36,349 bases of DNA. It comes from a virus. Taxonomy: Duplodnaviria > Heunggongvirae > Uroviricota > Caudoviricetes. The position numbers were made by a program, and so were the translations under genes. How positions within the stretch are numbered: position 1 is the stretch's first letter; each line of letters begins with the position of its first letter. The notes beneath the pieces are model-generated. The model did no database searches, was not told the origin of the DNA, and worked only from the letters and a program-made list of their open reading frames with translations. The stretch covers positions 1 to 36,349 of IMG/VR virus record IMGVR_UViG_2718217867_000002. One strand, given 5' to 3'. This document shows positions 8,798-17,523 of this stretch, piece after piece.

Positions 8798-9163
8798 ATG
8801 ACTGAAAGCATAGAATTTGTTTTGCCTTACCCGCCGACGGTGAATACCTACTGGCGACGTCATGGCAATACGTATTTCATCTCGGAAGCCGGAAAGCGTT
8901 ATCGCCGTGATGTGGCGCTAATTGTTCGCCAGCAGCGGCTGAAATTAAGCCTGTCCGGAAGGCTGGCGATAAAGATTATTGCAGAGCCACCGGATAAGCG
9001 CCGCCGCGACCTGGACAATATCCTGAAGGCACCACTGGATGCGCTGACGCATGCCGGACTACTTATAGACGACGAGCAGTTTGATGAAATCAATATTGTG
9101 CGCGGTCAGCTCGTTCCTGGTGGGCGGCTGGGGATAAAAATCACAGAACTGGAGTGCGCATGA
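8798..9163 (+). CDS. rusA: RusA-family Holliday junction resolvase
   Basis: 121 aa; MTESIEFVLPYPPTVNTYWRR... and DLDNILKAPLDALTHAGLLIDDEQ are typical RusA; start overlaps the upstream stop. Confidence 0.9.
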   Translation: MTESIEFVLPYPPTVNTYWRRHGNTYFISEAGKRYRRDVALIVRQQRLKLSLSGRLAIKIIAEPPDKRRRDLDNILKAPLDALTHAGLLIDDEQFDEINIVRGQLVPGGRLGIKITELECA

Positions 9164-9849
9164 ATAACCAGTATTTACAGTTTGTGCGTGAGCAGCTCAT
9201 TATCGCCACCGCTGATTTGAGTGGGGCAACAAAAGGTCAGCTTGAAGCCTGGCAAGAGAATGCCATGTTCGATACAGGGCGTTACAGGCGAAAAAAAATC
9301 CGGTACCGCGATGAAGTGACTGGAAAAATGATAACGCGGGATAATCCACCAATCCCGGGAAAGCAATCGCTGGCGAAGGGGACGTCAATTCCTCTGGTCA
9401 GTCCGGTTGAGTTTTCGACATCATCGTGGCGGCGGGCTGTTCTGTCTCTTGAAGAACATCATAAAGCCTGGTTGTTGTGGTGTTACAGCGGGAGTATTTG
9501 TTGGGAATATCAGATCGCGATAACACAGTGGGCGTGGAATGAATTTAATACTCAATCCGGTACCAGAAAAATTGCAGGGAAAACGCAGGAACGCCTGAAA
9601 AAATTAATCTGGCTGGCGGCGCAGGCAGTAAAAGCAGAACTTTTTGGTGGGGAAGGTTATGAATACCAGGAGCTGGCATTACTGGCGGGAGTGACAACTA
9701 AAAACTGGTCCAAAACATTTACTCGTCACTGGGTTGCAATGAAACACATTTTTCACCGACTTGATAGTGAGGCTTTATTGTTTGTAATGAGAACACGTTC
9801 AAAACAAAAGGCGGCATTTTCAAAGCAAAGTGTTGCAAAAGTAGATTGA
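9160..9849 (+). CDS. Late-gene antitermination protein Q-like
   Basis: About 230 aa between rusA and the lysis cassette; ATG overlaps the rusA stop (ATGA); assignment is mainly positional. Confidence 0.65.
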   Translation: MNNQYLQFVREQLIIATADLSGATKGQLEAWQENAMFDTGRYRRKKIRYRDEVTGKMITRDNPPIPGKQSLAKGTSIPLVSPVEFSTSSWRRAVLSLEEHHKAWLLWCYSGSICWEYQIAITQWAWNEFNTQSGTRKIAGKTQERLKKLIWLAAQAVKAELFGGEGYEYQELALLAGVTTKNWSKTFTRHWVAMKHIFHRLDSEALLFVMRTRSKQKAAFSKQSVAKVD

Positions 9850-10005: not shown

Positions 10006-10034
10006 TTGCAACATTGATTTCGTAACGTTATTAT
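10006..10034 (+). promoter_or_regulatory. Candidate promoter immediately upstream of the tRNA cluster (TTGCAA-17 nt-TATTAT)
   Basis: Sigma70-like hexamers; the -10 ends about 9 nt before the first tRNA. Confidence 0.4.
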
Positions 10035-10043
10035 CCTGCGCCC

Positions 10044-10119
10044 GGCCCTTTAGCTCAGTGGTGAGAGCGAGCGACTCATAATCGCCAGGTCGCTGGTTCA
10101 AATCCAGCAAGGGCCACCA
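10044..10119 (+). tRNA. tRNA with CAT anticodon, Ile2-like (ileX/ileZ-type); could be called Met from the anticodon alone
   Basis: 76 nt; acceptor GGCCCTT/AAGGGCC; anticodon loop ACTCATAAT; TTCAAATCC T-arm; CCA encoded; resembles E. coli ileX. Confidence 0.8.
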
Positions 10120-10120
10120 G

Positions 10121-10197
10121 CCGCCACTAGCTCATCAGGAAAGAGCGTCAACCCTTTAAGTTGAGTGTACGAGGTTCGAGTCCCCGGTGGCGGTCCA
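10121..10197 (+). tRNA. tRNA-like gene of uncertain isotype (anticodon loop CCTTTAA, reads as UUU/Lys but with C at position 33 and an A-C mismatch in the T-stem); possible pseudo-tRNA
   Basis: Acceptor CCGCCAC/GTGGCGG with CCA; D-arm TAGCTCATCAGGAAAGAGC; T-loop TTCGAGT. The cloverleaf folds by hand but has non-canonical features. Confidence 0.45.
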
Positions 10198-10199
10198 GT

Positions 10200-10275
<76 letters not shown>

Positions 10276-10278
10276 TAT

Positions 10279-10353
<75 letters not shown>

Positions 10354-10645: not shown

Positions 10646-10861
10646 ATGAAATCCATGGACAAAATTTCAACGGGCATTGCCTACGGCACCTCCGCAGGCA
10701 GTGCTGGCTACTGGTTTTTACAGTGGCTTGATCAGGTCAGTCCGTCACAGTGGGCTGCGATTGGTGTACTGGGGAGTCTGGTTCTGGGCTTCCTGACTTA
10801 TCTGACAAATCTGTACTTCAAAATCAGAGAAGACAAGCGTAAGGCTGCACGGGGAGAGTAA
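10646..10861 (+). CDS. Class II holin / pinholin (S21/EssQ-like), dual-start motif MKSMDK
   Basis: 71 aa, two TMDs, charged C-terminus; closely resembles phage 21 S; GGAGGTGAGG RBS. Confidence 0.9.
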
Positions 10862-12411: not shown

Positions 12412-12897
12412 TTATTTTGTGGTTTTGAAAAGTTTCATGTACTGATTGATAGGTTTTCCTGAGTAAGAATCTGTCCCTGGCTCAGGAGTATCAGATAAAA
12501 CTTTTGCAGCTAATTTGTTGGAGGCTTGATTACCAACCCCGACAATAGCCTCTACATAGAATTCATTGAAGGAATTTCTAAATCCGTATTGCATTTCTTC
12601 AATGCTGGCGATGAGAAGTTGAGTACCGATGCCTTGCGCTTTATATTCATCGGCTACTGCATAGCCAACGCCAAAGCATGGTTTACCTTCAACAAACTCT
12701 GCAGGGACATATATAGCAACACCTTTAACATTTTCTCCTTCAAAGAATGCATAAGTAAACCGTGGTGTACCCTCTGCATCATCCAAAAGCACCTTCATAT
12801 TTGGGTGAACTATGCATGGTGAAGGCTTAATCAGACCATTAGAAAAGGCGTATTGAAAACTAATTAATGAGTCTGTTGGATCAACGAGTTCTGGCAT
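12412..12897 (-). CDS. GNAT-family N-acetyltransferase, antisense to the phage late genes (moron)
   Basis: 161 aa; motif AQGIGTQLLIASIEEM fits the GNAT acetyl-CoA-binding motif A; AT-rich flanks; hairpin GGCGCA-aaaatc-TGCGCC near 12376-12395 downstream on the minus strand. Confidence 0.7.
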   Translation of the reverse strand: MPELVDPTDSLISFQYAFSNGLIKPSPCIVHPNMKVLLDDAEGTPRFTYAFFEGENVKGVAIYVPAEFVEGKPCFGVGYAVADEYKAQGIGTQLLIASIEEMQYGFRNSFNEFYVEAIVGVGNQASNKLAAKVLSDTPEPGTDSYSGKPINQYMKLFKTTK

Positions 12898-16282: not shown

Positions 16283-17523
16283 TGTTCTTTTCGGGATTAT
16301 TTCAACGAAAAAGTGACGCGCCGGTGACCACGCCAGCAGAGCTGGCGGATGCCATCGGGTTGTCTTACGACACCTATACCGGAAAGCAGATCAGCAGTCA
16401 GCGGGCCATGCGACTGACGGCGGTTTTTTCCTGCGTCAGAGTGCTGGCAGAGTCGGTCGGGATGTTGCCCTGCAATCTGTATCACCTGAACGGCAGCCTG
16501 AAACAGAGGGCCACCGGCGAACGTCTGCATAAGCTGATCTCCACGCATCCCAATGGCTATATGACGCCGCAGGAGTTCTGGGAGCTGGTGGTCACCTGTC
16601 TGTGCCTGAGGGGAAACTTTTACGCCTACAAAGTGAAAGCATTTGGCGAAGTGGCTGAACTGCTGCCCGTCGATCCCGGTTGTGTGGTACCGAAGCTTAA
16701 CAGTCGCTGGGAGCCGGTCTATCAGGTCACATTCCCGGACGGTTCCACGGATGTACTGAGCCAGGAAGATATCTGGCATGTGCGCACGCTGACGCTGGAC
16801 GGTCTGGTGGGACTGAATCCCATCGCCTATGCCCGCGAGGCAATATCGCTGGCGGCAGCGACCGAAGAGCACGGGGCCAGACTGTTCAGCAATGGCGCGG
16901 TGACGTCGGGTGTGTTGCGTACAGAGCAGACGCTGTCAGATCAGGCTTACGAGCGCCTGAAGAAAGATTTTGAGGAGCGTCACACCGGGCTTGGTAATGC
17001 TCACCGCCCGATGATCCTTGAGATGGGGCTGGACTGGAAGTCGATGGCGCTGAACGCCGAGGACAGCCAGTTCCTGGAAACCCGCAAGTTTCAGCTTGAA
17101 GAAATCTGTCGTCTGTTCCGGGTGCCGTTGCACATGGTGCAGAACACCGATCGCGCCACCTTCAACAATATTGAAGAGCTGGGGCTGGGATTTATCAACT
17201 ATTCACTGGTGCCGTATCTGACCCGCATCGAACAGCGGATCAACACCGGACTGGTACGAAAAAGTAAGCAGGGCGTTTATTACGCCAAATTTAACGCCGG
17301 GGCGTTACTGCGCGGGGATATGAAGTCCCGTTTTGAAGCCTACGCCACCGGGATTAACTGGGGAATTTACTCTCCCAATGACTGCCGCGACCTGGAAGAT
17401 ATGAATCCGCGTCCCGGTGGTGATGTCTATCTCACACCGATGAACATGACCACGAAACCCTCCGATGGCAGTAAAGCCGGTAAGCAGAAGGATAACGCCA
17501 ATGCAGACGAAACAACGTCTTGA
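16282..17523 (+). CDS. Portal protein (HK97 family)
   Basis: 413 aa; GTG start after GGAGG; followed by protease and capsid genes in HK97 order. Confidence 0.9.
   Translation: MFFSGLFQRKSDAPVTTPAELADAIGLSYDTYTGKQISSQRAMRLTAVFSCVRVLAESVGMLPCNLYHLNGSLKQRATGERLHKLISTHPNGYMTPQEFWELVVTCLCLRGNFYAYKVKAFGEVAELLPVDPGCVVPKLNSRWEPVYQVTFPDGSTDVLSQEDIWHVRTLTLDGLVGLNPIAYAREAISLAAATEEHGARLFSNGAVTSGVLRTEQTLSDQAYERLKKDFEERHTGLGNAHRPMILEMGLDWKSMALNAEDSQFLETRKFQLEEICRLFRVPLHMVQNTDRATFNNIEELGLGFINYSLVPYLTRIEQRINTGLVRKSKQGVYYAKFNAGALLRGDMKSRFEAYATGINWGIYSPNDCRDLEDMNPRPGGDVYLTPMNMTTKPSDGSKAGKQKDNANADETTS

Follow-up and report, generated by a model that had tools for sequence, protein, structure and literature searches.

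A prophage tRNA gene with a lysine anticodon, no U33 and an arginine-type body

Shiga toxin (Stx) phages and other lambdoid phages carry ileZ-argN-argO tRNA clusters downstream of the antitermination gene Q, in which the second gene, after an ileZ-type tRNA, is argN or a tRNA-Arg(UCU) allele. Phage tRNAs of another kind are known from work on bacterial defence: phage tRNA-Lys(UUU) variants neutralise PARIS and PrrC, and the tRNA-Thr(UGU) of phage 21 neutralises P2-Old (PMC12409363, PMC11555353, PMC12445682). Here we describe a gene with features of both, the second of four tRNA genes (slot 2) in IMG/VR virus record IMGVR_UViG_2718217867_000002, the whole stretch of which (36,349 nucleotides, nt) was analysed and is called the window; coordinates are window positions, on the + strand unless stated. 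The reading we prefer, at a probability of roughly 55%, is that this gene is the relic of an AGA-reading phage tRNA-Arg(UCU), which would still be transcribed and excised, would no longer be selected as a decoder, and would be in the course of being lost piecemeal.

The gene and its arginine-type ancestry

The gene and its unusual positions are as follows.

10121..10197 (+): slot-2 tRNA-like gene, 77 nt, tRNA-Lys(UUU) by anticodon, with an Arg-type body and encoded CCA (ARAGORN, Rfam, PGAP, homology to argN and Arg(UCU))
10153..10159 (+): anticodon loop CCUUUAA, comprising C32, C33 (10154, replacing U33), U34-U36 (10155-10157), A37 (10158) and A38 (from the sequence)
10172..10184 (+): T-stem pair 51-63, a mismatch of A51 (10172) with C63 (10184) (sequence and family alignment)
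10169..10169 (+): G48A in the variable loop, private to the window copy (A in 1 sequence, G in 49)

A first-pass annotation of the window had described a cloverleaf with encoded CCA, the loop CCTTTAA with C33, and the anticodon UUU, all of which ARAGORN, Rfam and the sequence itself bear out. ARAGORN calls tRNA-Lys(ttt) at exactly 10121-10197(+), with the C33 loop kept. Rfam matches RF00005 at 10121-10194 with 46.0 bits (E=7e-7), which is above the curated gathering score of 29 and is the lowest score in the cluster, the other three tRNAs reaching 65-74 bits; in copies one base apart, RefSeq/PGAP has a tRNA-Lys over the same 77 nt. The sequence is CCGCCAC-TA-GCTC-ATCAGGAAA-GAGC-G-TCAAC-CCTTTAA-GTTGA-GTGTA-CGAGG-TTCGAGT-CCCCG-GTGGCGG-T-CCA, with the CCA at 10195-10197. 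It forms a cloverleaf with stems of 7, 4, 5 and 5 bp and a 7-nt anticodon loop, to which A51·C63 is the lone exception, and the window copy retains the invariant residues U8, A14, G18, G19, A21, T54, T55, C56, A58 and G53-C61. A canonical elongator has U33 and a purine at 37; here A37 is present and position 33 is C. The slot-2 gene is a real tRNA-type gene and not a chance match, because 766 of 5426 complete E. coli genomes have this gene too, as the Lys-type allele. We rejected a chance cloverleaf or a mis-segmented neighbour, the latter one of the options raised at first, as having a negligible probability: three independent callers concur on the boundaries and the loop, and there are hundreds of homologues with compensatory changes.

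Thermodynamic folding alone is uninformative. The minimum-free-energy fold of the slot-2 gene is not a cloverleaf (z-score only -1.57), the cloverleaf being 1.4 kcal/mol less stable than the competing fold, while the minimum of two canonical Arg(UCU) alleles is essentially a cloverleaf; non-cloverleaf minima are also common among genuine tRNA sequences, and argN likewise has no cloverleaf minimum. The G48A substitution is absent from the fetched IMG/VR copies with full-length flanks and from all complete E. coli genomes, none of which has the exact window allele (best identity 98.7%).

The alignment with argN and host lysine tRNAs that had been proposed as a check relates the gene to the first and not to the second. 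It aligns over its full length with argN, the tRNA-Arg(UCG) of the same slot in Stx-phage ileZ-argN-argO clusters, and the body of host lysT is unrelated to it. Its position is also that of the slot-2 Arg family, directly after an ileZ-type tRNA and between Q and the lysis or stx genes. A literature search on ileZ, argN and argO found nothing relevant in the library searched. Prophage copies were collected from IMG/VR by anchoring on the Lys/Thr junction, with no requirement for an intact slot-2 gene; this sample replaced an earlier viral one that required an intact D arm and hence hid damaged alleles. It includes six Ile-X-Thr-Gly clusters whose second gene is a canonical tRNA-Arg(UCU), with U33, a paired A51-U63 or G51-C63, and an anticodon stem (UCAAC/GUUGA), D loop and variable loop in common with the slot-2 gene. 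The nearest of these relatives have the loop UUUCUAA or CUUCUAA. The closest (L342) combines the same stem, D loop and variable loop with the loop UUUCUAA and a paired A51-U63, and differs from the window gene at 8 positions; 7 differences separate the closest canonical relative from the common Lys-type allele. Measured against that relative, both oddities of the gene come down to three transitions, two in the loop (U33C and C35U) and one in the T stem (U63C). The canonical Arg relatives score 53.5-53.7 bits in Rfam, the slot-2 gene 7.5 bits lower.

Alignment of 18 distinct family members shows 98.7% of cloverleaf cells paired and both partners changed in five of the pairs. Unpaired cells (five) are found only at 51-63, where relatives have A-U, G·U or G-C, and two of the five belong to otherwise canonical Arg members. 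The A-C mismatch first noted as an oddity of the T stem is thus real, at 10172/10184, but is no sign of decay in itself, because two canonical Arg members carry it and the family evidently tolerates it; as a decay marker it was rejected. The two are IMG/VR loci L038 and L282, an Arg(UCG) and an Arg(UCU) member, of which L038 looks recombinant, with an argN 5' half and a PPompW-type 3' half. C35 is the main identity base for arginyl-tRNA synthetase (ArgRS). Judged by its sequence, the slot-2 gene descends from the Arg family and should no longer be an arginine tRNA, because C35 has been lost, with U35 in its place; A20 is retained. One further Ile-X-Thr-Gly cluster (L249, IMG/VR) has as its slot-2 occupant an 82-nt gene with a 6-bp anticodon stem and the loop ACCAGAT (C33, 'CAG'), and a stretch matching it lies unannotated in phage phiP27 at 17241-17321 (hits H189-H191).

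Polymorphism and lesions among prophage copies

Canonical Arg(UCU) alleles are found in 20-28 of the complete E. coli genomes, and the ileZ-type Ile gene in 3056 of the 5426, with at least 99% identity in 2775. Lysogens with an intact Lys-type allele include E. coli SMS-3-5, APEC IMT5155 and ECOR13 (PhiR47_1). Forty E. coli hits to the slot-2 gene, evenly spaced down the ranking, divide into 18 annotated as tRNA-Lys and 22 without annotation. The unannotated alleles have either a deleted U12 together with C70U (the PPompW prophage of Shiga toxin-producing E. coli) or C4U/U8C/C11U, some with G52A or C2U in addition, and Rfam finds no tRNA at E<=1 in these unannotated copies. The copy of O157/O111/O145 strains (PPompW prophage, L002:1592-1667; hits H149-H160) is of the first type, with U12 deleted from the D stem, and is not annotated by PGAP; its C70U creates G3·U70, the classic identity pair of alanyl-tRNA synthetase, probably by coincidence. 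A scan of genome contigs mostly returned an unrelated Spirochaete tRNA with the same D arm and anticodon stem, and with 3 usable Escherichia/Shigella hits the distribution across species is thus poorly sampled.

Raw flanks were unusable as a neutral yardstick, being mosaic, with nearly 100% of columns varying, and the comparison of polymorphism was therefore limited to 75 IMG/VR loci with the downstream flank of the window. In these, 20 of 71 sites vary in the slot-2 gene (28%), compared with 4 of 76 in the Ile gene (5%) and 20 of 168 in the non-coding flank (12%), an excess with Fisher p = 2e-4 against Ile and 0.004 against the flank; the Thr and Gly genes vary at 6 of 57 and 8 of 75 sites. 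By automated scoring, lesions at invariant or paired positions are present in 32 of 113 Lys-type copies (~28%). They include U8C (23 copies), G18A (4), deletion of U12 (2), changes of G24 to A or U (2), G52A (3), C31G, G66A and, in one copy, the loss of 7 nt from the 3' anticodon stem. In an earlier count by hand, 29 of 107 slot-2 copies had lesions vs. 4 of 113 Ile copies (p = 7e-7). Of the 32 lesion-bearing copies, 28 have theirs in the D arm and tertiary core. The T arm varies least of all domains (at 3 of 17 positions), and changes in the acceptor are nearly all C->U and give G·U pairs; the lesion sample is small, and the final 6 nt of the gene were fixed in it by the anchor used for collecting.

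Purifying selection, evident on the Ile gene, shows no sign on the slot-2 gene, whether or not recombinant patches are collapsed. The gene has lost features of a functional ancestor, varies at or above the neutral rate and carries further lesions in the population, as a tRNA pseudogene does. The decaying pseudo-tRNA that was among the options first offered has consequently become the best supported of them, given the Arg(UCU) ancestry, the excess polymorphism and the lesions at invariant positions.

The cluster, its prophage and the wider family

The neighbouring features are as follows.

10044..10119 (+): slot 1, prophage-specific tRNA-Ile2 type, anticodon CAU, ileZ type (Met/Ile2-type; ARAGORN, Rfam)
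10200..10275 (+): slot 3, tRNA-Thr(UGU), 100% identical to E. coli K-12 thrU (ARAGORN, Rfam, comparison)
10279..10353 (+): slot 4, tRNA-Gly(UCC), 100% identical to E. coli K-12 glyT (ARAGORN, Rfam, comparison)
10006..10034 (+): sigma-70-like promoter match TTGCAA-17-TATTAT, 9 nt before the first tRNA (consensus match only)
9154..9849 (+): antitermination protein Q gene (Pfam PF06323, 307 bits)
10646..10861 (+): phage-21-type class II holin gene (PF04971 'Bacteriophage P21 holin S', 121 bits)

Spacers of 1 nt and 2 nt separate the slot-2 gene from the Ile and Thr genes, respectively. The cluster begins 195 nt downstream of the Q gene and ends ~290 nt upstream of the holin gene, which is followed by lysozyme and Rz; the arrangement with Q upstream of the cluster is also found in L001. 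The cluster occupies the late-operon leader of a lambdoid prophage, because Q and the promoter-like match lie upstream of it and the holin, lysozyme and Rz genes downstream. The promoter-like site is where a Q-dependent late promoter would be expected, a function suggested by its place between Q and the lysis genes, and from their position we infer that the tRNAs are transcribed from it. The strongest promoter-like match of the region (10/12 positions, 10267-10294, +) runs across the Thr/Gly junction and is probably due to chance. The identity of the Thr and Gly genes to thrU and glyT implies that they either were captured from the thrU-tyrU-glyT-thrT operon of the host or still undergo gene conversion with it. 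In rare IMG/VR alleles of Thr the anticodon stem is shortened (TCACC or TCATC as its 3' strand), in agreement with what has been published on the Old-resistant tRNA-Thr of phage 21.

Ile(AUA), Arg(AGA), Thr(ACA) and Gly(GGA) make up a coherent set of rare A-ending codons, outside of which AAA falls. AGA and AGG are each used ~5 times per 1000 codons in the window's open reading frames (ORFs), which exceeds the E. coli average. AAA is the major Lys codon, and a reader of it would add little because the E. coli host has six tRNA-Lys(UUU) genes.

Elsewhere in the window, a DicF antisense small RNA at 175-226 (-), with a full-length Rfam match of 76.7 bits, marks a Qin/Kim-type lambdoid early region, and the sok antitoxin RNA of a hok/sok-type toxin-antitoxin locus lies at 6612-6761 (+; Rfam, 103.9 bits). 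An ORF at 5755-6420 (+) matches the periplasmic solute-binding family PF13531 (111 bits), an odd cargo for a prophage early/nin region. Certain GNAT toxins acetylate aminoacyl-tRNAs; a 161-aa GNAT acetyltransferase ORF lies between the lysis and packaging genes at 12412-12897 (-), with a weak Pfam match (27 bits), no adjacent antitoxin ORF seen and no PADLOC match. No tRNA-targeting system turned up in the window when nearby ORFs were scanned with PADLOC and Pfam.

The wider family was scanned with two kinds of anchor, one confined to the T arm and 3' acceptor and the other to the first 15 nt, and both kinds of scan turned up further phage tRNA clusters in which this scaffold carries very different anticodon arms. 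The sister loops are CAUUUAA (A33, UUU), CAUAUAA (A33, UAU), CAUUGCC/CAUUGCU/CAUUGAU and CAUUAUU, plus variants of 5, 6 and 8 nt; the anticodons of this A33 clade are UUU, UAU, UUG and UUA. Its members are as follows.

A33, loop CAUUUAA: L244, L245, L247, L277, L289, L290, L306
A33, loop CAUAUAA: L257, L263, L293, L294, L301-L303, L307, L308
Other A33-clade members: L252, L261, L281, L268; Yersinia phage YeP1 (L003:1501-1578)

Canonical U33 on this scaffold is limited to Arg members, and every non-Arg member found is without it: C33 accompanies UUU in the E. coli prophages, and A33 accompanies UUU, UAU and UUG in the sister clade. The A33 genes have one extra nucleotide between the D and anticodon stems, are undetected by Rfam at E<=1, and in the YeP1 copy are annotated as a pseudo-tRNA. 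They are 95-99% identical to each other, with flanks at ~75-80%, and vary within groups only at positions normally variable in tRNAs; they look selected, unlike the E. coli C33 gene. The A33-clade loci have no GenBank phage match beyond the shared tRNA genes, and a literature search found no description of the slot-2 gene or of phage tRNAs without U33.

Explanations and comparison with known systems

Lysyl-tRNA synthetase (LysRS) reads the UUU anticodon and prefers A73 as discriminator, and ribosome binding relies on t6A37 and mnm5s2U34 more in tRNA-Lys(UUU) than in any other tRNA. Charging of the slot-2 tRNA with lysine is plausible from its anticodon, U34-U35-U36, but its discriminator is U73 and its body is not homologous to that of lysT. 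Probably it also lacks t6A37, because E. coli TsaBCDE did not modify a U33C tRNA (PMC8887486). The history we propose begins with an argN-family Arg tRNA, an AGA or CGA reader, in slot 2 of a cluster with the Q late promoter on one side and the lysis genes on the other. Two loop transitions, U33->C and C35->U, turned CUUCUAA/UUUCUAA into CCUUUAA, by which the AGA-reading role would have been lost, and U63->C opened pair 51-63. The product is by anticodon a Lys(UUU) look-alike without the U-turn uridine, with U73 and a weakened T arm, probably without t6A37, and would be a very poor decoder at best. The gene would still be co-transcribed with its three neighbours, and its excision probably continues, because the acceptor/T-arm half recognised by RNase P is the best-preserved part; recognition of this half would also trim the adjoining Ile and Thr genes. 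With purifying selection gone, loss would proceed piecemeal in different prophage lineages.

Several observations weigh against this history. Single-step intermediates (U33-UUU or C33-UCU) are absent from 2.9 million viral contigs. The Lys-type founder allele is intact apart from its three changes and outnumbers the Arg(UCU) allele by ~30:1, and loop positions 33-38 are invariant in the 113 copies, where ~2.3 variable sites would be expected (P ~0.06). Many of the lesions are shared by descent or imported in patches, so that independent events are fewer than variable sites, and once the patches are collapsed slot 2 no longer exceeds the flank in rate but roughly equals it. Gene conversion with the host may contribute to the uniformity of the Thr and Gly genes, leaving Ile as the sole clean control. 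The conserved A33 clade, moreover, indicates that loss of U33 is not automatically fatal on this scaffold.

The gene might instead be a low-efficiency working tRNA-Lys(UUU) on an Arg-type body, supplying lysine decoding when defence nucleases destroy the host tRNA-Lys. PARIS AriB and P2 Old mainly target tRNA-Lys(UUU) and tRNA-Thr(UGU), and the late region of the window is of phage-21 type. AriB requires U36-A-A-U-C|A41, and U39A abolishes cleavage; positions 36-41 of the slot-2 gene are UAAGUU, not UAAUCA, and it has C16-A17 where AriB is modelled to contact U16-U17. Old requires a paired CNG at 28-30 and 40-42, of which the stem UCAAC/GUUGA has none, in contrast to the argN stem (UCAGC/GCUGG) with its CAG/CUG. 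PrrC cuts tRNA-Lys 3' of U33, and the C33 of the slot-2 gene is exactly at that junction. The invariance of positions 33-38 points the same way, as does the independent same-scaffold clade that pairs UUU with A33 and conserves it. The resistance features of the stem, however, were inherited from the Arg ancestor and are not new, and the right anticodon and the altered recognition and cleavage sites are present at the level of sequence only, with maintenance by selection not in evidence: there is no purifying selection, variation is at least that of the non-coding flank, and 28% of copies have disabling lesions. The partner Thr and Gly genes are host thrU and glyT rather than resistant variants, thrU being the main Old target. 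C33, which blocks t6A37 formation by the E. coli enzymes, should cripple decoding, U73 is not the discriminator LysRS prefers, and the window contains no tRNA-targeting system in the scans described above. We consider such a role unlikely. A related and rather improbable suggestion is that loss of U33 on this scaffold is a recurrent selected trait, in which a change 5' of the wobble U serves to escape or trap an enzyme that acts at 33/34 or depends on U33, such as a PrrC-type anticodon nuclease or the t6A37 machinery; the slot-2 gene would then be the E. coli representative, active only under attack and decaying otherwise.

A non-decoding tRNA-like RNA kept for its top half, either as a processing module that releases the Ile and Thr tRNAs or as a decoy, also seems to us quite unlikely. 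RNase P requires only an acceptor/T-arm minihelix, and its cleavage together with 3'-end cleavage would free the Ile and Thr tRNAs 1 and 2 nt away; a decoy would bind an anticodon nuclease or modification enzyme without being consumed, and the AriB paper raises non-productive competition by phage tRNAs as a possibility. The bias of lesions to the D arm and core, the quiet T arm and the acceptor changes that keep G·U pairs are consistent with such a role, and the wider family keeps its acceptor, D and T arms while its anticodon arms are radically different. The sample behind this asymmetry is small, however, with the last 6 nt fixed by the anchor, and the asymmetry may stem from recombination patches in the 5' half; clusters with a badly damaged slot 2 (the 7-nt deletion, the deleted U12) still persist. 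Altered decoding, which the first-pass annotation had also proposed, is without support and highly improbable. It would involve a turn at U34 and the anticodon U35-U36-A37 (UUA, an ochre suppressor), or frameshifting, to which only the loop CCUUUAA itself and the CAUUAUU loop of one relative, read by ARAGORN as anticodon UUA, lend themselves. The loop is a standard 7-nt one on a 5-bp stem, a reading frame shifted inside a 7-nt anticodon loop has no precedent known to us, and the evidence for relaxed selection applies equally here.

If the gene is indeed the relic of an Arg tRNA, as we think best supported, hundreds of RefSeq E. coli genomes list as a prophage "tRNA-Lys" what would be a remoulded and probably non-functional descendant of tRNA-Arg(UCU), which should not be counted as lysine decoding capacity or as an anti-defence tRNA without a test. 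It would also be a natural example of an apparent tRNA identity switched by two loop transitions, followed by decay within a conserved cluster. Should the less favoured reading of U33 loss as a selected trait prove true, C33 and A33 would mark a class of phage tRNAs altered beside the wobble base, with a bearing on PrrC, PARIS and Old.

Of the known systems, the argN and Arg(UCU) genes of the Stx and other lambdoid phages are closest. They share with the slot-2 gene the position downstream of Q, second after an ileZ-type tRNA, the scaffold CCGCCAY-TAGCTCATC...GGTTCGAGTCC...RTGGCGG-T-CCA, C1-G72, U73 and A20, the slot-2 gene being 80-83% identical to argN and about 90% to the nearest Arg(UCU) allele. 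Their loops are CUUCGAA or CUUCUAA, whereas that of the slot-2 gene is CCUUUAA, without C35 or U33, and its 51-63 pair is A·C; the slot-2 gene is polymorphic and often damaged, and the canonical Arg alleles are not. The nuclease-insensitive phage tRNAs, namely the tRNA-Lys of T5 (PARIS AriB), the tRNA-Lys of SP15 (PrrC) and the tRNA-Thr(UGU) of phage 21 and others (P2-Old), are likewise phage-borne, have the anticodon of the targeted host tRNA and, like the slot-2 gene, differ from it at every published recognition site. They have canonical loops, however, and their capacity to rescue has been shown experimentally, whereas the slot-2 gene is known from sequence, lacks U33, is under no detectable purifying selection, and has as its Thr partner the sensitive host sequence. 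Host tRNA-Lys(UUU) (lysT) has in common with it the UUU anticodon, A37, A38 and a 7-nt loop; the lysT loop is CUUUUAA, with U33, and lysT has A73 and G1-C72, in contrast to the C33, U73, C1-G72 and unrelated body of the slot-2 gene. The best-known natural C33 tRNA is the initiator tRNA-Met of multicellular eukaryotes. It, too, has C32-C33, an ANN-reading anticodon and A37-A38, but is a P-site initiator whose host t6A machinery tolerates C33, as the E. coli enzymes do not (PMC8887486). With tRNA pseudogenes and remoulded tRNAs, finally, the slot-2 gene shares an anticodon change on the body of another isotype and the loss of a near-universal residue, followed by lesions; unlike them, it is annotated as a normal tRNA-Lys and stands within an otherwise conserved, presumably co-transcribed phage cluster. 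It is, in short, best read as a remoulded tRNA and a tRNA pseudogene, both known kinds, in a known type of phage tRNA cluster.

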